In this document: positions 1,637 through 15,307 of the stretch, one piece after another
Numbering within the stretch: the first letter of the stretch is position 1
Layout: each line of letters starts with the position of its first letter
From: a virus
Taxonomy: Duplodnaviria > Heunggongvirae > Uroviricota > Caudoviricetes
Virus record (IMG/VR): IMGVR_UViG_2617270953_000003
Coordinates: 1-15,307 of that record
Strand: one strand, 5' to 3'
Length of the DNA: 15,307 nt
Notes under the pieces: model-generated
Told to the model about the DNA's origin: nothing
Databases searched by the model: none
What the model saw: the letters and a program-made list of their open reading frames with translations, nothing else
Translations under genes and position numbers: made by a program

Positions 1637-2128
1637 TCACTCTCCTTTGATGCGAATGCCAGTGGTACTCATTCTCCTGATTTCCCAGAGCACACGAGGA
1701 ACACCACCGTTTCCGACCGGATCGCGCTTACTCCGCATGGCGACGCTTGATTCCGCCCAGCTTTTTCTTGGAGGAAGCTCTTTCACACGAACAAAACCAG
1801 CTGCGCGAAGAGATGCTCCTGATTCATCTGCCTGGGTGTACGTAATACAACGTTGATAACCCATAGCCTTTGCTGCCCGCCAGACAGCACCATAAAGCGC
1901 GCTGTTAGCGTTGCGTTCTCCTGTGGTACATGTGCGATTTACTTCAAGCGTTAATCCATCGTCCAAATGTCGTGCAACAGGTCGACCAGCTGTCGCCACA
2001 CCTATCAATTCTCCGGCATTATTTCTCAGACCAATGCTGAATTTATGCCCCACTGGTGGTTTATTGTGTCGGTGGTGCTGTGCGATAAATTCCTGCGCCG
2101 CTTTCAGCGTTATAGGTGAAATGACCAT
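1637..2128 (-). CDS. hypothetical protein (163 aa), possibly GNAT-fold-like
   Basis: ATG at 2126-2128 with AGGAGG RBS; overlaps the upstream stop by 1 nt (TGATG). Weak GNAT-like pattern (...GVATAG..., ...ALYGAVWRAAKAMGY...AAGF). Confidence 0.5.
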   Translation of the reverse strand: MVISPITLKAAQEFIAQHHRHNKPPVGHKFSIGLRNNAGELIGVATAGRPVARHLDDGLTLEVNRTCTTGERNANSALYGAVWRAAKAMGYQRCITYTQADESGASLRAAGFVRVKELPPRKSWAESSVAMRSKRDPVGNGGVPRVLWEIRRMSTTGIRIKGE

Positions 2129-2607
2129 CACTCAGACTCCTCCTTGATGCCAGCGGCGCGGGAATCATTCCATCGCTTTACTTCTTCACTAATTACGTCA
2201 ATGCATTCTTTCGAATCCATTAGGTAATCTTCATCAAAAAGACGTTCCTGTTCGTTTTCTATCGCAACAATGATTGCTTCAACTAATTTTTGTGCCTGAG
2301 AATCACTTTCTAACTCTGCAATGCGCTTACTCCCATCCGAGATAACACCTTCGTAATACTCACGCTGCTCGTTGAGTTTTGATTTTGTCTCCTCAAGCTC
2401 AACACGCAGCTTCCCTACCGTTAGCGCAATATCCTCGTTCTCCTGGTCGCGGCGTTTGATGTATTGCTGGTTTCTTTCCCGTTCATCCAGTAGTGCCAGC
2501 ACAACCTGAGGTGTGACCTTCATACGAAATGCCAGCAATTTTTGTGGTGTGGCTGCTATTTTTATTGCTTCTGCCGCATCACGCAGTGCCTGATAGTCAA
2601 TTGTCAT
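2128..2607 (-). CDS. coiled-coil-rich phage protein (159 aa), Ea22-type slot
   Basis: ATG at 2605-2607 overlaps the upstream stop (ATGA). Sequence rich in E/K/R/L/Q heptad-like stretches. Confidence 0.5.
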   Translation of the reverse strand: MTIDYQALRDAAEAIKIAATPQKLLAFRMKVTPQVVLALLDERERNQQYIKRRDQENEDIALTVGKLRVELEETKSKLNEQREYYEGVISDGSKRIAELESDSQAQKLVEAIIVAIENEQERLFDEDYLMDSKECIDVISEEVKRWNDSRAAGIKEESE

Positions 2608-3248
2608 TCTCGCCATCCTTCACAGTTGTAATCACTACAGCCTTCAAAATCATATGGGCTGTACTGCCAGGAGATTTTTCCGCAATGCGGACAATTCCAA
2701 CGCACCTTCCCGCTTCGCGACTTCTTTCTTCTGTTCTGCTCTTTCAACCAGTCAGGCATGACCAAACCTGCGCCCTGAACCATTGTTCTGCGGTTAAAGT
2801 TATTGATATTGAACGTCCTGCGCTTTGCTGCATCAGCAATGGAAAATGGCAACCAAACTATTCCTGGTTCGTTTTTGTTGGCGACGCTAAAGATGGTCGC
2901 TTTACTGAAGTCATCTGTTGGCAATCCACCGTGTTGAAGCCAGTAAACATCGTTGCCGTTCCAGCTACCTTTTTTGTAGGCCACATACGCAGTGCAATCT
3001 GACTCAATCAGGCTTTCTGTAGGGATGTACTGGCAATCAACGTGCCACACTGCCATTGCATCCACGCTATCAGCGCAAACAGGCTGATCGATATCTCGCC
3101 CACAATTCCAGGCTTTTTGGGCTTCTTCCAGCGTGTAAACATGAGCGCGATCGATATCAGAACTGTAACCATTGCCGTTATGGCAATGGAATGAAGCGTT
3201 ATTGCCCACAGTTTCACGCGAGCACATCATGTAAAAACGGTTAGTCAC
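2604..3248 (-). CDS. hypothetical protein with Cys/His clusters (214 aa), GTG start
   Basis: AAGGAGG RBS (plus-strand cctcctt at 3255-3261) 6 nt upstream of GTG at 3246-3248, overlapping the upstream stop (GTGA). C-terminal CPHCG...C...C and N-terminal CHNGNG motifs. Confidence 0.5.
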
Positions 3249-3412
3249 TGGCTGCCTCCTTTGCGCCACATCGCATTCAGATATTTGTTTTCATTCACTG
3301 ATGGAAAAGAATTTCTCTTAAGTAATTCCTCTCTCGATGGCATTGGCTTTACGCGTTGGCGAATAATCATTTCTGCCGGAAGAATGCCGGGATTGTATGC
3401 AAGTCCTCTCAT
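3245..3412 (-). CDS. small hypothetical protein (55 aa)
   Basis: ATG at 3410-3412 with GAGGA RBS at 7 nt spacing; the longer tracked ORF (to 3562) overlaps the upstream gene and lacks an RBS. Confidence 0.35.
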
Positions 3413-3739: not shown

Positions 3740-4123
3740 TCAGAATGGGATGGAATCGTCGTATACAGGAGTGTTCTGCTGGTTACTACTTTGCCGCTGC
3801 GGGCCATTTCCTGAAGCTGCAAATCCAATCTTTGCATTCAGTAATTCAAGAGTGATTGATTGACCATTTTGCCCCTGATAAACATCAACCCTGATGTTTT
3901 CTCCGGTAATTTCCACAATTCCACCTTCAACAAGAACACTACGGTAGTAATCCGCTTGCGCTCCCGGCTTGGCAAATACAACGGCGCTGTAGTTTATCCA
4001 TTCTTTCTTTTTTGTCTGGCGATCGTAATACTGAACGCCAGCACGGATGTTGAATCCGATATTTTCCCCGGCCTGAAACTCTCTTGCGGGCTTGTTTAGT
4101 CTTACAGTAATCGAATGTGCCAT
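3740..4123 (-). CDS. ssb: single-stranded DNA-binding protein (short SSB, 127 aa)
   Basis: C-terminal acidic tail ...PVYDDSIPF matches the SSB DDDIPF-type tail; ATG at 4121-4123 overlaps the erf stop (TAATG). Confidence 0.6.
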   Translation of the reverse strand: MAHSITVRLNKPAREFQAGENIGFNIRAGVQYYDRQTKKKEWINYSAVVFAKPGAQADYYRSVLVEGGIVEITGENIRVDVYQGQNGQSITLELLNAKIGFAASGNGPQRQSSNQQNTPVYDDSIPF

Positions 4124-4728
4124 TAAGCAGCCGCTCCTTCTAATTCGTCTCGTCTGATGTTGTAAACGTCCTGCGCTTTGTGCTGCTCCGGTGTGCCTTC
4201 GAGCATCTTCCACGCTTTGGCGAACGCCTGTTTAAGCTCTTCCACGGTGTTTTTCTGCATTGCTGCGTCAGTGAATGCTTTTAGAACCTGTTCAGGTGTA
4301 GGTGATGGTTTTGATTGCTTTGCTGCTGCGTTCTGCTGATGTTTATGCTCGTCTGTATCTGCATCTTTCGCATCATCAATGCCGAACAAACCATTAAGGC
4401 AATACTTGCGCGCATAAGAGCTTGTAGCTCCAGTAACTTGTGCAGAATCCATTCCTTTCTTGCTTTCTTCCTCTCTTGCGAGAGCGGTTGCCGTATGACT
4501 GTTTTCGCCATCGGTAATAGTTGCCGTGGCTTTCACGTAATACCGATCACCAATCAACACAACTTCATCGCTGATTGATAAAAACAGGCCATTCAGTAAC
4601 GGCTTAACGCCTTCAAGAATGTCTTCGCAGCTTCTGTATTTATATTTACCGAATGAGTTGTACTGATTCTTTGGCGCGTTCAGATTCTCCTGAATAGCTG
4701 CCAGTCTTGCATAAAATTCTTTGCTCAT
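4123..4728 (-). CDS. erf: Erf-family single-strand annealing recombinase (201 aa)
   Basis: N-terminus MSKEFYARLA...NAPKNQYNSFGKYKYRSCEDILEGVKPLL matches my recall of P22 Erf; ATG at 4726-4728. Confidence 0.8.
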   Translation of the reverse strand: MSKEFYARLAAIQENLNAPKNQYNSFGKYKYRSCEDILEGVKPLLNGLFLSISDEVVLIGDRYYVKATATITDGENSHTATALAREEESKKGMDSAQVTGATSSYARKYCLNGLFGIDDAKDADTDEHKHQQNAAAKQSKPSPTPEQVLKAFTDAAMQKNTVEELKQAFAKAWKMLEGTPEQHKAQDVYNIRRDELEGAAA

Positions 4729-5238: not shown

Positions 5239-5655
5239 TTATTTGAAGATTTCTATGAAATCAAGAACTGATGATATTTCGTGGTTGAACGATTTTCTTT
5301 TGTATCTTTCTATCGCAGAATCCACCTGGTGTTTATAGTCATCGTCGTTTGAGTATTTAACGAAGCATTCTATTGTCTCAGGCGTTACAGCTATAAGGCT
5401 CCACCAACCTTCATCAGATTGATATTCAAATCCCATGCTTTCAAGCCATCCAGCATATTTCCCTCCAGCATCTTGCCAGTGTGTTTTTTCTGCAAGGAAG
5501 CTGTTAACCGTCATATGTGCATCAAGGCATTTATCCAACTGTTTACCATTAAGTAGCCATGCGCTGACAGTTGCACAACCCAAATCAACTGATTGAGTAG
5601 AGATATTGAATTGGTCGTAATTATCTGGATTAACCAGAATATCTGTAATTTTCAT
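5239..5655 (-). CDS. hypothetical acidic, Trp-rich protein (138 aa), ea10-position cargo
   Basis: ATG at 5653-5655 with GGAGG RBS at 4 nt; immediately preceded by an intrinsic terminator; no family recognised. Confidence 0.55.
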   Translation of the reverse strand: MKITDILVNPDNYDQFNISTQSVDLGCATVSAWLLNGKQLDKCLDAHMTVNSFLAEKTHWQDAGGKYAGWLESMGFEYQSDEGWWSLIAVTPETIECFVKYSNDDDYKHQVDSAIERYKRKSFNHEISSVLDFIEIFK

Positions 5656-5667
5656 AATTCCTCCGTC

Positions 5668-5696
5668 AAAAAAATTGCCCTCACACTGGAGGGCAA
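5668..5696 (-). terminator. intrinsic terminator within the pL operon (8-bp stem ttgccctc/gagggcaa, 6-nt loop, T7 tail on minus strand)
   Basis: Perfect 8-bp inverted repeat at 5675-5682 and 5689-5696 with an A7 run at 5668-5674 (T7 on the minus strand). Confidence 0.6.
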
Positions 5697-5830
5697 AGAA
5701 GATTTCCAATAATCAGAACAAGTCGGCTCCTGTTTAGTTACGAGCGACATTGCTCCGTGTATTCACTCGTTGGAATGAATACACAGTGCAGTGTTTATTC
5801 TGTTGTTTATGCCAAAAATGAAGGCCACCA

Positions 5831-7421: not shown

Positions 7422-7763
7422 TTAACCTGACATCCACTCACGCACCCATCTCGATACTTGCACTGCAAATTTTGGAGATAGCCACTGAGCTAAATTAATT
7501 GCGATGTCTGGATGAACCCAAGTCCCTTGATTCTCTGCTCTTCCGCCTTTAAATGATTGAATTAACTCCGATATGGGAATCCCCATATCGCGTGATAATT
7601 CATCAAAAAAATCTTGTGTTGTTTTTAGTCGTGTATAGTCAGCAAGTAGCTTCCCCGCAGACTTGCACATCGCGGTGGCATTGATGTATCCGTCTTTGGT
7701 GCGAAGATGGATGACTTCTCCATCAACTTCTCTAGCGATTAATGCAAGTTGAAATTGTGTCAT
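7422..7763 (-). CDS. KilA-N domain protein (113 aa), directly downstream of cI
   Basis: Motifs DGYINATAMCK...GTWVHPDIAINLAQWLSPKFAVQVSRWV are typical of the KilA-N (APSES-like) DNA-binding domain; AGGA RBS; starts 31 nt after the cI stop. Confidence 0.75.
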   Translation of the reverse strand: MTQFQLALIAREVDGEVIHLRTKDGYINATAMCKSAGKLLADYTRLKTTQDFFDELSRDMGIPISELIQSFKGGRAENQGTWVHPDIAINLAQWLSPKFAVQVSRWVREWMSG

Positions 7764-9275: not shown

Positions 9276-9437
9276 ATGACAAAACGTCGTAAGAAATACC
9301 AGGAAAAAGAAGAGATTCGACACCCTGATTCACCTGAGGGATTAGTGGTAGCCGCAGCAAATAACAGGGCGTTCGCAGAGCGCCTTGTTGGTGTTTACAG
9401 ACTAGCCAAAGTAGGAGTGAAACATGGGCGTCGTTAA
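9276..9437 (+). CDS. small basic ORF (53 aa) between cII and the replication gene
   Basis: Hand-translated MTKRRKKYQEKEEIRHPDSPEGLVVAAANNRAFAERLVGVYRLAKVGVKHGRR; CAGGAG RBS 5 nt upstream of the ATG; 3' end overlaps the replication-gene start by 14 nt. Confidence 0.35.
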   Translation: MTKRRKKYQEKEEIRHPDSPEGLVVAAANNRAFAERLVGVYRLAKVGVKHGRR

Positions 9438-10314
9438 GTTAGCTGATTACAGGCATAACCCTGTACAACATCAGGAGGCATCCAGTATGGGGTATGTCTC
9501 TATACACCGCCAGTTTATGGACAGCAGGCTCTATAAGGACTCTCAGGCAGTACATCTTTGGCTTCACTTAATCCTCAAGGCTAATCACGAATCTACTGTC
9601 GTCAATACGGATATCGGTCCGATAACTGTTGATCGCGGTCAGATGATAACTGGACGCCCGTCGCTGGTCAGAGAAACATTCATCCCCGACAACAAAGTTC
9701 GGAGCTTATTACGGACTTTTGAGTCGAAAGGTATGCTTAATATTTGCTCGATGGGGAAGAAATTTAGCCTGTTTACAATCGTTAAATATGACGATTTTCA
9801 GGCAAAAAATTGTCCAACGGTTGTCCAACAGTTGTCCAACGCAAACACCAGTAATGGTGCGGCTCTCAGCGGAGATTGTCCAACGGTTGTCCAACAGTTG
9901 TCCATAAACAATAATATAAATAATATCTCTAATACTGACGTATTAGAGAGTGCTACAGCAGACAAAAAGTCTGACAAGAAAAAACCTTCCGTCAGCTGTC
10001 AGGATGTTGTCGATGCTTACCACGAAATCCTTCCTGAAGCGCCAAGAATCCGCGCACTGAATGACAAGCGTAAAAACCAGATCCGAACGTTCTGGCGCAA
10101 AGCCGGAGTGATAACCCGCCAGCTTGACGGACATGGGTTCACGATGCAGGACTGGAGAAATTATTTGAGCTACGTAGGCGAAAATTGCCGATGGATGTTC
10201 GAAGAGCGTCCAAACCATCAACGCGGAACTGTCTGGCACAAAAAGGGATTTGATTTCCTGCTTAACGATAATACCTACCTGAAAGTTCGTGAGGGTGAAC
10301 ACGATGACCGATAA
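9424..10314 (+). CDS. replication initiator (O-like, non-lambda allele) with the origin inside the gene
   Basis: AGGAG RBS; O-type N-terminal region; iteron array embedded in the coding sequence (encoding repeated CPTVVQQLS); followed by a DnaB-family helicase gene. Confidence 0.8.
   Translation: MGVVKLADYRHNPVQHQEASSMGYVSIHRQFMDSRLYKDSQAVHLWLHLILKANHESTVVNTDIGPITVDRGQMITGRPSLVRETFIPDNKVRSLLRTFESKGMLNICSMGKKFSLFTIVKYDDFQAKNCPTVVQQLSNANTSNGAALSGDCPTVVQQLSINNNINNISNTDVLESATADKKSDKKKPSVSCQDVVDAYHEILPEAPRIRALNDKRKNQIRTFWRKAGVITRQLDGHGFTMQDWRNYLSYVGENCRWMFEERPNHQRGTVWHKKGFDFLLNDNTYLKVREGEHDDR
9810..9950. repeat. origin iterons: two copies of a 3 x TTGTCCAAC array (9810-9840 and 9876-9906) plus AT-rich tract (9906-9950)
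   Basis: ttgtccaacGGttgtccaacAGttgtccaac occurs twice about 66 bp apart (last unit of the second copy is ttgtccata), followed by aaacaataatataaataatatctctaatactgacgtattagag. Confidence 0.8.
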
Positions 10315-11740
10315 TTTTTATGCGCCGCCCCATAGCATCGAGGCAGAGCAGGCGGTGATTGGTGGATTGCTTCTGGATGATGACAGCAGTGAGCGCGTCC
10401 AGAAGGTTCTGGCGATGCTGAAGCCTGATTCATTTTACAGCCGGCCACACAAAATCCTTTTCGAAGAAATAACCAGAATGCACCGGGAGCAAAAGCCAGT
10501 AGATGGCCTGACGCTTTTCGATGAACTGGAGCGTAAATCGTTAACTGTGTCTGTTGGCGGTTTTGCTTATATCGCTGAGATCGCAAAGAACACGCCAAGC
10601 GCAGCAAACATCGTTGCCTATGCAATGCAGGTTCGTGAAACCGCAATGGAACGCTACGCCATCAACCGCATGACTGAAGCGACGGAATTGCTCTATTCCC
10701 GCAACGGAATGACTGCAACGCAGAAGTACGAAGCTATTCAGTCGATTTTCACGCAACTGACAGACCATGCAAAAACCGGATCGCGTCGCGGCCTTCGTTC
10801 ATTTGGTGAGGTCATGGAAGACTGGGTTAGCGACCTTGAGAAGCGATTTGACCCATCAGGCGAACAACGGGGAATGAGCACAGGGATCCCATCGCTGGAC
10901 AGGATGCTGTCACCGAAAGGTCTGGTGAAAGGCTCTCTGTTTGTCATTGGCGCTCGCCCTAAGATGGGGAAAACGACGCTATACAGCCAGATGGCAATCA
11001 ATTGCGCAGTGCATGAGAAAAAGCCCGCTTTGATGTTCAGCCTTGAAATGCCAGGTGATCAGATACTGGAAAAACTGGTAGGGCAGAAGTCTGGTGTTAA
11101 CCCGAATATTTTTTACCTTCCGGCGACAAATGACGCTGATGACGGCTATCAGGGTGATTACGATGGTGACTTCAACAGGGCGATCGAAACAGCCAATCGC
11201 TTGAGTGAAATCGACCTGCTTTACATCGACGACACGCCGGGATTATCTCTGGCTCAAATCGTCAGCGAAAGTCGTCGAATCAAGCGAGAAAAAGGATGTG
11301 TTGGCATGATTCTGGTCGATTACCTGACACTAATGACCGCTGAGAAGGCCGATCGCAACGACCTTGCTTACGGCATGATCACCAAAGGACTGAAGAACCT
11401 TGCCAAAGAGCTTGATTGTGTTGTTGTGCTTCTGACACAGCTTAACCGCGCACTGGAAAGCCGAACCAATAAACGCCCATTACCAAGTGACTCCCGAGAT
11501 ACAGGGCAGATTGAACAGGATTGCGATTATTGGGTTGGGATCCATCGTGAAGGTGCTTTTGATGACAGTGTTCCACCTGGTGAAACCGAACTAATCCTTC
11601 GTCTCAATCGTCATGGCAATACCGGCACGGTGTATTGCATTCAGGCAAATGGAGCTATTTATGACACAGACCAACAGTCTGCTGAAATGCGCCGCCGTGA
11701 ACGCGAGGAACCGCAGTCCAAGAAGAAAGGAGGATTCTGA
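10304..11740 (+). CDS. DnaB-family replicative helicase (P22 gene-12-like), 478 aa
   Basis: N-terminus ...FYAPPHSIEAEQAVIGGLLLD... is the classic DnaB start; Walker A GARPKMGKT; ATG at 10304 overlaps the end of the upstream gene. Confidence 0.9.
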   Translation: MTDNFYAPPHSIEAEQAVIGGLLLDDDSSERVQKVLAMLKPDSFYSRPHKILFEEITRMHREQKPVDGLTLFDELERKSLTVSVGGFAYIAEIAKNTPSAANIVAYAMQVRETAMERYAINRMTEATELLYSRNGMTATQKYEAIQSIFTQLTDHAKTGSRRGLRSFGEVMEDWVSDLEKRFDPSGEQRGMSTGIPSLDRMLSPKGLVKGSLFVIGARPKMGKTTLYSQMAINCAVHEKKPALMFSLEMPGDQILEKLVGQKSGVNPNIFYLPATNDADDGYQGDYDGDFNRAIETANRLSEIDLLYIDDTPGLSLAQIVSESRRIKREKGCVGMILVDYLTLMTAEKADRNDLAYGMITKGLKNLAKELDCVVVLLTQLNRALESRTNKRPLPSDSRDTGQIEQDCDYWVGIHREGAFDDSVPPGETELILRLNRHGNTGTVYCIQANGAIYDTDQQSAEMRRREREEPQSKKKGGF

Positions 11741-11768
11741 TGACCATCTACATCACTGAGCTAATAAC

Positions 11769-11800
11769 AGGCCTGCTGGTAATCGCAGGCCTTTTTATTT
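11769..11800 (+). terminator. tR2-like intrinsic terminator (8-bp stem aggcctgc/gcaggcct, 8-nt loop, TTTTTATTT tail)
   Basis: Perfect inverted repeat at 11769-11776 and 11785-11792 followed by a T-rich run, between the helicase gene and ninB. Confidence 0.65.
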
Positions 11801-11816
11801 GGGGGAGAGGGAAGTC

Positions 11817-12257
11817 ATGAAAAAACTAACCTTTGAAATTCGATCTCCGGCACATCAGCAAAACGCTATTCACGCAGTACAGCAAATCCTTCCAGACCCA
11901 ACCAAGCCAATCGTAGTGATCATTCAGGAGCGCAACCGCAGCTTAGACCAGAATCGGAAGCTTTGGGCTTGCCTTGGTGACGTCTCTCGTCAGGTTGAAT
12001 GGCATGGGCGTTGGCTGGATGCAGAAAGCTGGAAGTGTGTGTTTACCGCAGCATTAAAGCAGCAGGACGTTGTTCCTAACCTTGCCGGGAATGGCTTTGT
12101 GGTAATAGGCCAGTCAACCAGCAGGATGCGTGTAAGCGAATTTGCGGAGTTATTAGAGCTTATACAGGCATTCGGTACAGAGCGTGGCGTTAAGTGGTCA
12201 GACGAAGCGCGACTGGCTCTGGAGTGGAAAGCGAGATGGGGAGACAGTGCTGCATGA
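11817..12257 (+). CDS. ninB: NinB (Orf family recombination mediator)
   Basis: Protein MKKLTFEIRSPAHQQNAIHAVQQILPDPTKPIVV... matches my recall of lambda NinB; real start is the internal ATG at 11817. Confidence 0.9.
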   Translation: MKKLTFEIRSPAHQQNAIHAVQQILPDPTKPIVVIIQERNRSLDQNRKLWACLGDVSRQVEWHGRWLDAESWKCVFTAALKQQDVVPNLAGNGFVVIGQSTSRMRVSEFAELLELIQAFGTERGVKWSDEARLALEWKARWGDSAA

Positions 12258-12781
12258 CTATCAAATCAAATACGCCAGCACACGACAAGGACTGCTGGCA
12301 AACGCCGCTCTGGCTTTTTGATGCACTGGATATTGAGTTTGGATTCTGGCTGGATTCGGCAGCGAGCGACAAAAATGCTCTGTGCGCTCACTGGCTAACT
12401 GAGGCTGACAACGCGCTCAATTCTGAGTGGATAAGCCACGGTGCAATCTGGAATAACCCACCGTACAGCAATATCAGGCCGTGGGTGGAAAAAGCCGCTG
12501 AGCAGTGCATACAACAGCGACAGACGGTAGTGATGCTTGTGCCAGAGGATATGTCAGTCGGATGGTTCAGCAAGGCTCTGGAGAGTGTTGACGAAGTTCG
12601 TATTATCACTGATGGACGGATTAATTTTATCGAACCATCGACAGGGCTGGAGAAAAAGGGAAACAGCAAAGGCTCCATGCTGCTGATTTGGCGACCGTTC
12701 ATCAGTCCTCGACGGATGTTTACTACCGTATCCAAAGCGGCATTGATGGCGATCGGGCAGGGCGTCAGGAGGGCAGCATGA
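12254..12781 (+). CDS. dam: phage DNA N6-adenine methyltransferase (Dam family), in the ninC/ninD slot
   Basis: Catalytic NPPY motif (IWNNPPYSN); ATGA overlap with the ninB stop; size about 175 aa. Confidence 0.8.
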
Positions 12782-12960
12782 GACGACAGCGACGAAGTAT
12801 CACCGACATCATCTGCGAAAACTGCAAATACCTTCCAACGAAGCGCTCCAGAAATAAATGCAAGCCAATCCCAAAAGAATCTGACGTAAAAACCTTCAAC
12901 TACACGGCTCACCTGTGGGATATCCGGTGGCTTAGAGAACGTGCGAGGAAAACAAGGTGA
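12778..12960 (+). CDS. ninE: NinE (60 aa)
   Basis: [27 protein letters not shown]... matches my recall of lambda NinE; ATGA overlap with the dam stop. Confidence 0.85.
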
Positions 12961-13127
12961 TTGACCAAAATCGAAGTTACGAACAAGGAAGTGTCGAGCG
13001 AGCTTTAACGTGCGCTAACTGCGGTAAGAAGCTGCATGTGCTGGAAGTTCACGTGTGTGAGCACTGCTGCGCAGAACTGATGAGCGATCCGAATAGCTCA
13101 ATGTACGAGGAAGAAGACGATGAATGA
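12957..13127 (+). CDS. ninF: NinF (56 aa, GTG start, four-Cys motif)
   Basis: Hand-translated (V/M)[55 protein letters not shown]; GTGA overlap with the ninE stop; resembles lambda NinF. Confidence 0.8.
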
Positions 13128-13842
13128 GTTAATAAATGGCAATGCCATCAAAATGACAAGCATTGAAATCGCTGAGTTGGTTGGTAAGCGTCATGACAAT
13201 GTGAAACGTACCATCGAAACGCTGGCTAAAAATGGTGTTATCCGGCTTCCTCAAATTGAGGATTGTGGAAGAATCAATGGGTTAGGCTTAAATCAAAGTT
13301 TTTGTGTGTATGTATTCGAAGGCGAACAAGGAAAGCGAGACAGTATTGTCGTTGTAGCCCAGTTGTCGCCGGAATTCACCGCTCGTCTTGTTGACCGTTG
13401 GCGAGAGCTTGAAGAAACTGCGGTTAATATCCCCAAAACGCTACCAGAAGCGTTGCGCCTTGCTGCTGATCTTGCTGAGCAGAAAATGCAACTGGAAAAC
13501 CAGCTCGCAATTGCCGCACCTAAAGTTGAGTTTGCCGATCGCGTTGGCGAGGCCAGCGGAATTTTGATTGGAAACTTTGCAAAGGTTGTTGGAATTGGTC
13601 CAAACAAACTGTTTGCGTGGATGCGCGATCACAAAATCCTTATTGCTTCAGGTTCCCGGCGCAATGTGCCAATGCAGGAATATATGGATCGCGGCTATTT
13701 CACAGTGAAAGAAACAGCGGTCAACACAAATCACGGAATACAGATATCGTTCACCACAAAAATCACCGGCCGTGGTCAACAGTGGCTGACCAGAAAGCTG
13801 CTCGATAACGGAATGCTGAAAGTAACAGGGGAGGCTGCTTAA
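13120..13842 (+). CDS. phage antirepressor-like protein (Rha-type N-terminal region plus KilAC/ANT-type C-terminal region), Roi-like, 240 aa
   Basis: N-terminus ...MTSIEIAELVGKRHDNVKRTIETLAKNGVI... is Rha-family-like; C-terminal half resembles antirepressor KilAC; GAGGAAG RBS; overlaps the ninF end. Confidence 0.65.
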   Translation: MNELINGNAIKMTSIEIAELVGKRHDNVKRTIETLAKNGVIRLPQIEDCGRINGLGLNQSFCVYVFEGEQGKRDSIVVVAQLSPEFTARLVDRWRELEETAVNIPKTLPEALRLAADLAEQKMQLENQLAIAAPKVEFADRVGEASGILIGNFAKVVGIGPNKLFAWMRDHKILIASGSRRNVPMQEYMDRGYFTVKETAVNTNHGIQISFTTKITGRGQQWLTRKLLDNGMLKVTGEAA

Positions 13843-14132
13843 TGGCTAACCTACGCAAAGAAGCGCGCGGCAGAGAATGCCAGGTACGTATTTACGGCGT
13901 ATGCAATGGTAATCCTGAAACTACAGTTCTGGCACATTACCGGATGGCTGGAATTTGCGGAACGGGAATGAAGCCTGACGACCTGATCGGCGCATGGGCT
14001 TGTAGCGCGTGTCACGATGAAATCGATCGACGTACCCATAACCTCGACAACAAAGACGCCAGACTTTACCACCTCGAAGGCGTAATCAGGACGCAGGCGA
14101 TACTGCTGAAGGAGGGGAAGATTAAGTCATGA
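13842..14132 (+). CDS. ybcO: YbcO-like DUF1364 protein (putative nuclease, 96 aa)
   Basis: MANLRKEARGRECQVRIYGVCNGNPETTVLAH...CSACHDEIDRR resembles DLP12 YbcO; TAATG overlap upstream and ATGA overlap downstream. Confidence 0.7.
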   Translation: MANLRKEARGRECQVRIYGVCNGNPETTVLAHYRMAGICGTGMKPDDLIGAWACSACHDEIDRRTHNLDNKDARLYHLEGVIRTQAILLKEGKIKS

Positions 14133-14524
14133 AAACCTACCGAATAAAATTGCCGTGGCCTCCTTCAAACAACCGATATTGGCGACACTCAAGAGGGATC
14201 CACTACATCAGCGACTGGGGGAAGAGATACCGAAAAGAAGTAATCGAATTAATCCAGCAACAACAGCTAGACATCAAAATCACACCTCGCATCAGAATAA
14301 CCATCCACGCAGCACCTCCCGATAACCGCAAACGAGATTTGGACAATCTGCCCAAAGCCGTTTTTGACGCACTCACCAGTGCGGGCTTCTGGCTGGATGA
14401 CGGTCAGATAGACGATATGCGCATCAAGCGCTATCAGGCGATTAAAGGTGGAATGCTTGTGTTGGTTGTGACTGAAACATGCGGGAGTTTGCCAATGATT
14501 ACAGAGCTACTGGAGGCCGCATGA
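14129..14524 (+). CDS. rusA: RusA Holliday-junction resolvase (131 aa)
   Basis: M.TY.I.LPWPPSNNRYWRH...RDLDNL.KAVFDALTSAGFWLDD matches the RusA signature. Confidence 0.85.
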   Translation: MKTYRIKLPWPPSNNRYWRHSRGIHYISDWGKRYRKEVIELIQQQQLDIKITPRIRITIHAAPPDNRKRDLDNLPKAVFDALTSAGFWLDDGQIDDMRIKRYQAIKGGMLVLVVTETCGSLPMITELLEAA

Positions 14525-14727
14525 CGTTCTCAGTAAAAACCATTCCAGACATGCTCGTTGAAGCATACGGAAACCAGACAGAAGTAGCACGCAGACTGAA
14601 ATGTAGTCGCGGCACGGTAAGAAAATACGTTGATGATAAAGACGGGAAAATGCACGCCATCGTCAACGACGTTCTCATGGTTCATCGCGGATGGAGTGAA
14701 AGAGATGCGCTATTACGAAAGAATTGA
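14521..14727 (+). CDS. ninH: NinH (68 aa)
   Basis: [68 protein letters not shown] matches my recall of lambda NinH; ATGA overlap with the rusA stop. Confidence 0.85.
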
Positions 14728-15307
14728 TGGCAGCAAATACCGAAATATTTGGGTAGTTGGCGATCTGCACGGTTGCTACACGAACCTGATGAACAAACTG
14801 GATACGATTGGATTCGACACCAAAAAAGACCTGCTTATCTCGGTTGGCGATTTGGTCGATCGCGGTACAGAGAACGTTGAATGCCTGGAATTAATCACAT
14901 TCCCCTGGTTCATAGCTGTACGTGGAAACCATGAGCAAATGATGATTGATGGCTTATCAGAGCGTGGAAACGTCAATCACTGGCTGCTTAATGGCGGTGG
15001 CTGGTTCTTTAATCTCGATTACGACAAAGAAATTCTGGCTAAAGCTCTTGCCCATAAAGCAGATGAACTTCCGTTAATCATTGAACTGGTGAGCAAAGGT
15101 AAAAAATATGTTATCTGCCACGCCGATTATCCTTGTGACGAATACGAGTTTGGAAAGCCAGTTGTTCATCAGCAGGTAATCTGGAACCGCGAACGAATCA
15201 GCAACTCACAAGACGGGATCGTAAAAGAAATCAAAGGAGCGGACACGTTCATCTTTGGTCATACGCCAGCAGTGAAACCACTCAAGTTTGCCAACCAAAT
15301 GTATATC
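14705..15307 (+). CDS. ninI: Ser/Thr protein phosphatase NinI (lambda PPase / orf221 family), 3' end beyond window
   Basis: Frame 2 from ATG at 14705 translates [29 protein letters not shown]...GDLVDRG...RGNHE..., the metallophosphatase GDxHG/GDxxDRG/GNHE motifs; absent from the track because no stop occurs before the window end. Confidence 0.85.

Follow-up and report, generated by a model that had tools for sequence, protein, structure and literature searches.

The stretch of DNA analysed here (the window, 15,307 nucleotides) represents the early region of a temperate lambdoid phage. Its rightward delayed-early (pR) operon would read cro-cII-O-P-ninB-dam-ninE-ninF-roi-ybcO-rusA-ninH-ninI, with a NinI phosphatase gene downstream of ninH, and a ybcO-like gene and a rusA gene lie side by side within it (Table 1). 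The initial annotation had placed these two genes from the letters alone, and both of its open reading frames proved exact. They are very probably the standard gene pair found in the 'nin' region of lambdoid temperate phages and prophages. ybcO and rusA would be carried on one message and, as for all of the neighbouring genes, translational coupling would occur via overlapping stop and start codons. A promoter and terminator scan of 11700-15307 found no promoter-like sites within the pair and no more terminator-like matches than in shuffled sequence, one of them on the minus strand within rusA; no Rfam family matched anywhere in the window. Two minus-strand open reading frames (13851-14072 and 14203-14376) were taken as shadows of the coding strand.

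Table 1. Features of the ybcO-rusA locus and its flanks (positions in the window).
Feature	Position	Strand	Basis and remarks
ninB/orf, recombination mediator	11799..12257	+	97% nt identity to lambda ninB over 12000-12257
ninF	12957..13127	+	Pfam NinF, E 4.2e-12; lambda homology to 13122; left flank of slot
roi, antirepressor-like, 240 aa	13120..13842	+	Phage_pRha and KilAC domains; Pfam ANT PF03374, E 8.1e-33
replacement cassette roi-ybcO-rusA, 1390 bp	13123..14512	+	blastn against lambda and HK106
ybcO-like gene, 96 aa, DUF1364	13842..14132	+	Pfam PF07102, PDB 3G27, phrog_131
ybcO/rusA ATGA start/stop overlap	14129..14132	+	sequence; also mosaic joint
rusA, Holliday-junction resolvase, 131 aa	14129..14524	+	Pfam PF05866, 1Q8R, phrog_34
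rusA/ninH ATGA start/stop overlap	14521..14524	+	sequence
ninH	14521..14727	+	Pfam Phage_NinH, E 2.4e-44; 97.5% nt identity to lambda from 14513; right flank

The YbcO-like protein scores 150.1 bits against its Pfam family (cut-off 29.9, E 1.8e-44), aligns over residues 1-95 with the solved K-12 YbcO (E 1.9e-40, 71% identity) and falls in a PHROG named 'HNH endonuclease', the label that RefSeq phage records likewise use. Residues C13, C21, C54, C57, H32, H58, D59, E60 and D62 are invariant among 16 diverse homologues from Enterobacterales to Pseudomonas. In DUF1364 the four cysteines have been assigned to zinc binding and the conserved beta-hairpin histidine to catalysis (PMC4999995), the family has been classed as His-Me finger by superposition of 3G27 (PMC5714182), and YbcO has been described as a His-Me finger whose catalytic histidine is conserved and which has RusA, Q and antirepressor as neighbours (PMC4999995, PMC5714182). 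YbcO is a putative His-Me finger (HNH-type) zinc-finger nuclease; no experimental report of DNA cutting by YbcO was found in the literature searched. An AlphaFold2 model of the window protein, built from a 15-sequence alignment, was too poor for a fold search (mean pLDDT 46.9, pTM 0.35).

P1 Ref, a RecA-dependent HNH nuclease (PDB 3PLW), and DUF968 (YdfU; Orf-HNH fusions) have the His-Me finger fold, treble-clef zinc site included, that is predicted for YbcO, and both are phage recombination accessory proteins, as YbcO probably is. YbcO has been linked to Ref by FFAS, and DUF968 clusters with DUF1364 (PMC4999995, PMC5714182). We obtained no sequence-level match of YbcO to Ref or to DUF968. YbcO differs from both in architecture, lacking the N-terminal segment of Ref and the Orf-like domain of DUF968, and RecA dependence is a feature of P1 Ref but is not known for YbcO.

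RusA scores 69.4 bits against its Pfam family (cut-off 22.8, E 5.8e-19), matches the PHROG 'RusA-like Holliday junction resolvase' at E 6.1e-52, and its residues 1-117 align without gaps to the K-12 RusA structure (E 2.1e-37, 53% identity). Family scores for both proteins are far beyond chance, and Pfam, PHROGs and the PDB sequence search agree on the two identities first proposed. Absence of the RusA catalytic residues was the refuting condition set in the initial annotation; on alignment to K-12 RusA all are present, with the catalytic and DNA-binding residues R69, D70, D72, N73, K76, D90 and D91 identical in position (RDLDNLPK, WLDD; roles from PMC1636454). The window RusA also carries a C-terminal tail of about 14 residues that the 120-aa K-12 protein lacks. 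Its homology to the E. coli enzyme, for which a structure and mutants exist, indicates that RusA would be a small endonuclease, dimeric and dependent on Mg2+, that recognises four-way (Holliday) junctions and makes symmetrical cuts in two of the strands, with catalysis by an acidic cluster (D70/D72/D90-D91) together with K76. RusA is thus intact in this prophage and could serve as a backup for RuvC in the host. E. coli rusA is activated by IS2 or IS10 insertions upstream, RusA suppresses ruv mutations, and it acts without a partner both in vitro and in vivo (PMC1636454).

The pair occupies the slot of lambda ninG, as had been proposed: it is flanked by NinF-Roi and NinH, and homology to lambda is broken between these flanks. 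Against lambda, blastn matched window positions 12785-13122 at 95.6% and 14513-15307 at 97.5%, and matched nothing between 13122/13123 and 14513; HK106 gave the same outer boundaries, 13122 and 14513. Homology therefore breaks and resumes around three genes, roi, ybcO and rusA, and not two, so that replacement of NinG by ybcO-rusA was right as to the slot and too narrow as to its contents. The 1390-bp cassette, which includes roi (annotated by name in HK97, HK022, HK620 and JEP4), stands in, relative to lambda and HK106, for an unmatched ninG stretch of 597 bp.

Lambda Rap/NinG (PF05766), a single protein of 204 aa without sequence similarity to RusA, lies between ninF and ninH in the same way as ybcO-rusA does here. 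It is an endonuclease specific for branched DNA, and Holliday junctions are among the structures that it resolves (PMC5714182, PMC4118853); its C-terminal half is, like YbcO, predicted to be a His-Me finger (PMC5714182). The Pfam NinG profile matched neither YbcO (E up to 10) nor RusA, and the same scan of YbcO gave no weak HNH match either, a chance zf-CHY hit being the sole extra. Profile-profile comparison of YbcO with NinG (hhalign) returned a probability of 0.2%, from shallow alignments (Neff 1.6) that leave fold-level kinship possible. The two solutions are mutually exclusive in the loci surveyed: YbcO, RusA or Roi occurred within 4 kb of a lambda-type NinG at none of 80 NinG loci, and NinG appeared among 160 YbcO loci as a single fragment. 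The pair ybcO-rusA is a positional and putatively functional substitute for NinG and not a detectable homologue. That rap and rusA are alternatives, and that RusA neighbours YbcO, is already on record in the literature.

The arrangement itself is also already known. In E. coli K-12 the cryptic prophage DLP12 (and likewise phage 82) has ybcO-rusA of the same families, in the same order and on the same strand, upstream of the Q antiterminator in the nin region, and its RusA has catalytic residues identical to those of the window. The context differs, DLP12 reading ninE-ybcO-rusA-ylcG-quuD where in the window the pair follows ninF-roi and precedes ninH-ninI. The DLP12 alleles are distant (YbcO 71% and RusA 53% amino acid identity, with about 68% nucleotide identity over ybcO only), the 4-base overlap is GTGA in place of ATGA, and the DLP12 RusA is without the 14-residue tail. 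The initial comparison with DLP12 thus holds for gene order, but the nearest relatives by sequence are elsewhere. HK97 (roi, gp66, gp67), HK022, HK620 (roi, hkbD, rus), HK75, HK140 and CUS-3 have the roi-DUF1364-rusA triplet after ninF as in the window, and roi-ybcO of HK97, HK022, HK620 and HK75 is 91-96% identical to the window in nucleotides. RusA in the HK97 group is another allele, with about 47% amino acid identity. For the whole cassette the closest deposited phages are JEP4 and the Stx2c phage Stx2_5044, which are colinear over ninF-roi-ybcO-rusA-ninH-ninI at 94-95% nucleotide identity, with RusA at 96% in amino acids; mosaicism relative to both is seen elsewhere in the window.

The ybcO/rusA junction had been read as evidence of pairing, with tight ATGA coupling suggesting a functional pair. 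ATGA overlaps are present at ybcO/rusA and at rusA/ninH, whereas roi/ybcO is joined by TAATG with one base shared. Of 54 species-level loci in which a classic RusA follows directly, 51 have the ybcO/rusA overlap too. Between ninB and ninI each of the nine junctions overlaps or abuts, the overlaps ranging from 1 to 23 bases, and because every junction in this run does so we rejected the ATGA overlap as a sign of ybcO/rusA pairing. The same junction is a place of exchange. Homology to the HK97-type phages ends at 14133, and a ybcO allele with at least 97% amino acid identity to that of the window stands beside a RusA only about 47% identical to the window RusA in 70 of 76 viral contigs; the window-type RusA beside the window-type ybcO allele is the minority combination, seen in 6 of 76 viral contigs and 30 of 5426 complete E. 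coli genomes. Free exchange of RusA alleles takes place at the ATGA joint, and the divergence of YbcO correlates only weakly with that of RusA (Spearman 0.33). A co-adapted physical complex of YbcO and RusA is argued against because RusA alleles vary beside one ybcO allele and because this correlation is weak.

Neighbourhood was surveyed at YbcO loci retrieved by conserved YbcO peptides. A junction-nuclease gene lay no more than 800 bp downstream of YbcO in 70 of the best 80 species-level loci (RusA in 64, VRR-NUC in 4 and DUF1064 in 2), a sample that is not unbiased because of this retrieval and in which counts are inflated by shared prophage ancestry. These 70 loci span Enterobacterales, Pasteurellales and Pseudomonadales, and stand-alone VRR-Nuc proteins cut four-way junctions (PMC4103454). 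Among the remaining ten, an Orf-like DUF1367 gene was immediately upstream in nine. DUF1367 was considered as a fourth resolvase type and rejected; PHROGs groups it as 'NinB/Orf mediator', and no PDB sequence relative was obtained. The conserved neighbourhood across species supports a functional association of YbcO with RusA.

It is possible, although we would not call it probable, that YbcO and RusA are functionally independent, being neighbours by common descent and conserved nin order in an operon whose compact style accounts for the overlap. The run of overlapping junctions and the allele exchange described above fit independence, as does a RusA that acts alone, and each protein is found without the other: RusA without YbcO in Stx2a_WGPS2, Acinetobacter HN_Aba_01 and Bcep781, and YbcO without a recognisable adjoining resolvase in ten of the 80 loci as well as in Vibrio phage D56 and Sulfitobacter pCB2047-C, where Pfam gave no match for the two unannotated genes that follow YbcO and no nuclease motif was visible in them. 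ybcO and rusA can also be separated by a homing endonuclease or by ninI (L012, L100 and L080). Independence does not readily account for a junction nuclease adjoining YbcO in three orders with no such constancy upstream (Roi in only 2 of 80 loci), nor for the RusA position being taken by unrelated nuclease folds and not by arbitrary genes; in addition, related HNH domains occur fused to Orf-like and RusA domains (PMC4118853). What these observations do count against is an obligate pairing, given that RusA works alone, occurs without YbcO and is exchanged beside one ybcO allele.

Orf-type genes recur on the other side of YbcO. In the window ninB/orf would supply the upstream part of an Orf ... 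YbcO-resolvase module for recombination. YbcO directly follows Orf in F116 and in the Vibrio phages 1.054.O and D56, and the order is Orf-YbcO-DUF1064 in F116 and Orf-YbcO-RusA in 1.054.O. DUF968, which is sister to DUF1364, occurs in fusions with Orf-like, Erf, Rad52 and RusA domains (PMC4118853, PMC5714182). We tentatively suggest that YbcO could be a dedicated accessory nuclease in a three-part module made up of an Orf-type mediator, YbcO and any Holliday-junction resolvase. YbcO would process D-loops or three-strand branches and pass four-way junctions to the resolvase, and YbcO with RusA, VRR-NUC or DUF1064 would together equal the single Rap/NinG. This three-part arrangement is left open because a junction nuclease of one of three unrelated folds directly follows ybcO in most surveyed loci, an Orf-like DUF1367 directly precedes it in nearly all of the rest, and related HNH domains are fused to Orf-like and RusA domains.

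Two other roles for YbcO were weighed. The 'HNH endonuclease' label in RefSeq and PHROGs, and the position of the YbcO module just upstream of the small terminase gene in F116 and at locus L078, might suggest a packaging helper, that is, a protein that aids terminase in concatemer cutting and is not a recombination nuclease. HK97 gp74 is an HNH terminase cofactor of this kind. Such a role for YbcO seems very improbable. In the window, HK97, HK022 and HK620 the gene is in the early nin region, between ninF/roi and rusA and away from the terminase genes, and HK97 has its ybcO-type gene (gp66) besides a separate terminase-associated HNH gene. YbcO also occurs in the P22-like phages HK620 and CUS-3, which package by headful, and the genes conserved beside it encode Orf-like proteins and resolvases.

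It is similarly hard to credit YbcO as a selfish homing-type HNH endonuclease, or a toxin or defence nuclease, lodged beside rusA. HNH nucleases are often mobile, and a true homing endonuclease (HNH_3 and AP2 domains) sits at exactly the ybcO/rusA junction in L012 and L100. YbcO, however, has only 96 aa without an extra DNA-binding domain, keeps a fixed position and orientation with no sporadic insertion, and is highly conserved in the surveyed set (median pairwise identity 73%, a single cluster at 70%).

On the reading that YbcO belongs with recombination, it would be a His-Me finger (HNH-type) nuclease stabilised by zinc, in which His32 acts as catalytic base. It would most likely work in the same pathway as RusA, with branched DNA or D-loops as its substrates, and assist the Orf mediator and the resolvase without being a required RusA subunit. 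RusA would resolve the branched DNA that arises from phage recombination (here Erf, Abc2 and Orf) and from replication, before packaging, a task that falls to the unrelated Rap/NinG nuclease in the same slot in lambda. As annotation the pair matters little; the interest lies in the function of YbcO, which is very widespread, highly conserved and structurally solved, and because it is consistently placed between Orf-type mediators and junction resolvases, a part in recombination could readily be tested.

The window adds to the known cases in which lambdoid phages exchange modules at gene boundaries. The cassette would have originated by such modular exchange at three joints, namely the ninF/roi overlap on the left, the ybcO/rusA ATGA internally and, on the right, a 12-nt boundary motif common to the end of ninG. 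The final 12 nt of rusA, GAGGCCGCATGA, are identical to the final 12 nt of lambda ninG.

The window corresponds to the early region of a temperate lambdoid phage. Its leftward operon encodes Erf, the anti-RecBCD protein Abc2, Ead/Ea22 and N. Next come the immunity genes cI, cro and cII, and the rightward operon then runs in the order DnaB-type helicase, ninB/orf, Dam methylase, ninE, ninF, roi, ybcO, rusA, ninH and the ninI phosphatase gene. The best whole-window matches (HK106, mEp506, mEp234, HK542, HK97 and HK022) each covered about half of the window piecewise, a pattern of typical mosaicism. No promoter-like sites were seen within the ybcO-rusA pair, and terminator-like matches were no more numerous than in shuffled sequences; therefore, the pair is part of the long pR transcript. 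An Rfam scan of the window matched zero families.

Features of the window with their positions and supporting matches
Feature	Position	Strand	Evidence or context
ORF	1637-2131	-	weak, sub-threshold Mom-family match (24.2 bits; cut-off 27.1)
KilA-N domain ORF	7422-7763	-	between N and cI
Hairpin then T-run	11769-11800		strong; directly 5' of ninB
Dam N6-adenine methyltransferase	12254-12781		Pfam E 3.3e-65; at the lambda ninC-ninD place, between ninB and ninE
ybcO	13842-14132	+	96 aa; Pfam YbcO/DUF1364 (PF07102), E 1.8e-44, 150 bits (cut-off 29.9)
rusA	14129-14524	+	131 aa; Pfam RusA (PF05866), E 5.8e-19, 69 bits (cut-off 22.8)
Boundary motif GGAGG..GCNGC-ATGA	12240-12260, 12765-12785, 13825-13845, 14510-14525		nin-gene junctions

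The initial annotation had placed a YbcO-like gene and rusA side by side, and both reading frames and both identities were borne out by Pfam, PHROGs and solved structures. PHROGs gives the products as an HNH endonuclease and a RusA-like Holliday junction resolvase, respectively. YbcO residues 1-95 matched K-12 YbcO (PDB 3G27; E 1.9e-40, 71% identity), and RusA residues 1-117 matched K-12 RusA (PDB 1Q8R) without gaps (E 2.1e-37, 53% identity). In E. coli RusA, mutagenesis has identified D70, D72, K76 and D90/D91 as critical, R69 as involved in DNA binding and N73 as having a minor role (PMC1636454). These residues, including the catalytic ones whose absence would have spoken against the annotation, were all found at the same positions in ...KRDLDNLPKA...FWLDDGQ..., so the window protein looks catalytically competent from its sequence. 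K-12 RusA, at 120 aa, lacks the 14-residue C-terminal tail of the window protein. In an alignment of homologues, YbcO residues C13, C21, C54, C57, H32 and H58 were invariant; the structure model of the window YbcO had a pLDDT of 46.9, too low to contribute structural evidence. Profile comparison of YbcO with NinG gave no signal.

The pair had also been described as replacing lambda NinG, which holds by position, but the exchanged block comprises three genes (roi, ybcO and rusA) rather than two. Lambda aligned with the window (blastn) over 12785-13122 (ninE-ninF, 95.6%) and 14513-15307 (ninH-ninI, 97.5%), and HK106, a close relative with ninG, likewise gave outer boundaries of 13122 and 14513. 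Between these boundaries lie 597 unmatched bp in lambda (the bulk of ninG) versus 1390 bp in the window (roi, ybcO, rusA). The block has its left joint at the ninF/roi overlap and its right joint 9 nt 5' of the ninH start, inside the last 12 nt common to window rusA and lambda ninG (GAGGCCGCATGA), and because these ends are identical both proteins terminate in -EAA. YbcO, RusA and Roi were absent within 4 kb in all 80 contigs with lambda-type NinG, and a NinG fragment was present in only one of 160 YbcO loci; since the NinG proteins in this set all shared at least 98% identity with that of lambda, mutual exclusion is demonstrated for that type only. In lambdoid phages, orf is always upstream of rap or rusA, which specify two structurally distinct resolvases (PMC4118853).

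The ATGA overlaps had been taken as a sign of a functional pair. Such overlaps are present at ybcO/rusA and rusA/ninH, whereas the roi/ybcO junction is TAATG. In the species-level survey, the overlap was found in 51 of 54 classic-RusA loci with RusA directly 3' of ybcO. However, overlaps of 1-23 bases occur at each ninB-to-ninI junction, so the ATGA argument does not discriminate. The boundary motif recurs at many nin-gene junctions in the window and in lambda (L001), and the proteins upstream of it consequently have -AA or -EAA at their C-terminus (in the window NinB, Dam, Roi and RusA; in lambda NinB, NinC and NinG). In the window RusA, the additional C-terminal tail looks like a linker bearing this motif.

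The arrangement had been likened to that of DLP12, the cryptic prophage of E. coli K-12. The ybcO-rusA order is shared with DLP12 (ninE-ybcO-rusA-ylcG-quuD), but HK97-like phages and JEP4 stand closest to the window. Annotated roi-DUF1364-rusA triplets occur in HK97 (roi, gp66, gp67), HK022, HK620 (roi, hkbD, rus), HK75, HK140, HK633, CUS-3, Kapi1 and others, a group with 91-96% nucleotide identity to the window over roi-ybcO; JEP4 and Stx2_5044 are colinear with the window across the full block (94-95%). Part of the segment was matched by 957 of 5426 complete E. coli genomes, with both alleles together in only 30. RusA, Q and antirepressor have been reported as typical DUF1364/DUF968 neighbours, with a proposed role in recombination (Jablonska et al. 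2017, PMC5714182), and nuclease function has been predicted from structure (Kaur and Subramanian 2016, PMC4999995). With these corrections, the initial annotation correctly captures an ordinary gene arrangement that had been described before.

Neighbours of YbcO were surveyed by a pattern search from the YbcO alignment, taking the best 80 loci in a one-genome-per-species collection (Enterobacterales, Pasteurellales, Pseudomonadales) and 80 viral contigs; neighbours were classified by locally built HMMs and checked against Pfam. Among the 80 species-level loci, whose counts are inflated by shared prophage ancestry, classic RusA lay at most 800 bp downstream in 56, a divergent RusA cluster (Pfam RusA E 4.5e-13) in 8, VRR-NUC in 4 and DUF1064 in 2. 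With no downstream nuclease, DUF1367 was directly upstream in 9 and an integrase gene directly downstream in 1. As a control, Roi was the upstream neighbour in only 2/80. Stand-alone VRR-Nuc proteins are dimers that cleave four-way junctions (PMC4103454), DUF1064 has been predicted to be a PD-(D/E)XK nuclease, with T7 endonuclease I-like proteins as relatives (PMC1189080), and PHROGs groups DUF1367 with NinB/Orf mediators. Orf is directly 5' of YbcO in remote phages as well: F116 (Orf-YbcO-DUF1064), Vibrio 1.054.O (Orf-YbcO-RusA) and Vibrio D56 (Orf-YbcO-unknown). This consistent placement, with an Orf-type mediator on one side and a junction nuclease on the other, is good evidence that YbcO acts in the same pathway, and the functional-pair conclusion is plausible on grounds other than the overlap.

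A co-adapted complex is a different matter. In vitro RusA is active by itself, and it suppresses ruv mutations when an upstream IS element drives its expression (PMC1636454). Stx2a_WGPS2, an Acinetobacter phage and Bcep781 have RusA but no YbcO, and among deposited phages RusA-like genes are in 408 records versus 273 for YbcO-like genes. YbcO is also found without a recognisable resolvase. A single ybcO allele (at least 97% amino acid identity) accompanies two rusA types among the viral contigs (L085-L164), one about 47% identical to the window RusA in 70/76 and the window type (at least 94% identical) in 6/76. Nucleotide homology breaks at 14133, right after the ybcO/rusA ATGA overlap (14129-14132). 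Across species, median pairwise identity was 73% for YbcO versus 42% for RusA, a contrast partly built in by retrieval favouring conserved YbcO, with a Spearman coefficient of 0.33 between the divergences of the two. Because the genes occur separately, exchange alleles and correlate weakly, and RusA acts alone, we argue for a loose pathway association rather than a co-adapted complex.

By homology, RusA is a predicted dimeric resolvase that depends on Mg2+, and its active site is intact; it would resolve phage recombination and replication branches, the task of Rap in lambda, and if expressed could replace RuvC in the host. The putative YbcO nuclease, judged only by fold and conserved residues, may be a zinc-stabilised His-Me finger with His32 as general base, most likely working on branched intermediates beside Orf and the resolvase. 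The sole reading with some novelty, in which Orf, YbcO and a resolvase form a module with YbcO as its putative dedicated accessory nuclease, is a tentative one that we consider rather unlikely.

Several minor observations were made. A second context for YbcO, resolvase-less, with DUF1367 directly 5' and no nuclease 3', was seen in L044, L050, L060, L067, L069, L071, L072, L073 and L078 and in the phage Rac record (L249); Q comes after YbcO in L060, L069, L071, L072 and Rac. DUF1367 and a downstream resolvase are almost mutually exclusive (2 overlaps in 80 loci). Genes 3' of distant YbcO homologues in Vibrio D56 (L247, 2125-2517) and Sulfitobacter pCB2047-C (L248, 2240-2596) showed neither a Pfam family nor a visible nuclease motif; they may be partners that escaped recognition, or unrelated. 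The ybcO genes in metagenome-assembled genomes labelled Cellvibrionaceae, Bacillota, Collinsella and Bacteroides (L005, L007, L008, L011, L035) are 76-100% identical to that of this enterobacterial phage, and these contigs are probably phage or prophage sequence binned wrongly.

Elsewhere in the window, the Dam gene is a further cassette swap with joints at gene boundaries. The T-run 5' of ninB and its next bases (TTTTTATTTGGGGGAGAGGGAA) are also found 5' of lambda ninB, a match that points to the tR2 terminator. The ORFs at 2-373, 428-784, 2604-3269, 3740-4213, 5239-5709 and 9424-10314 matched no Pfam family.

Insertions between ybcO and rusA were also seen: a homing-type endonuclease gene (HNH_3 with a weak AP2 domain match) lies precisely between them in two loci (L012, 4288-4818; L100, 4288-4812), and a ninI phosphatase gene takes that place in L080. 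One E. coli protein of 117 aa (P0086) is a chimera that fuses YbcO residues 1-70, at ...NLDN, with the C-terminal half of a RusA of the HK97 type, just past the RusA DLDN catalytic motif, and apparently arose by in-frame deletion between short LDN-coding repeats.
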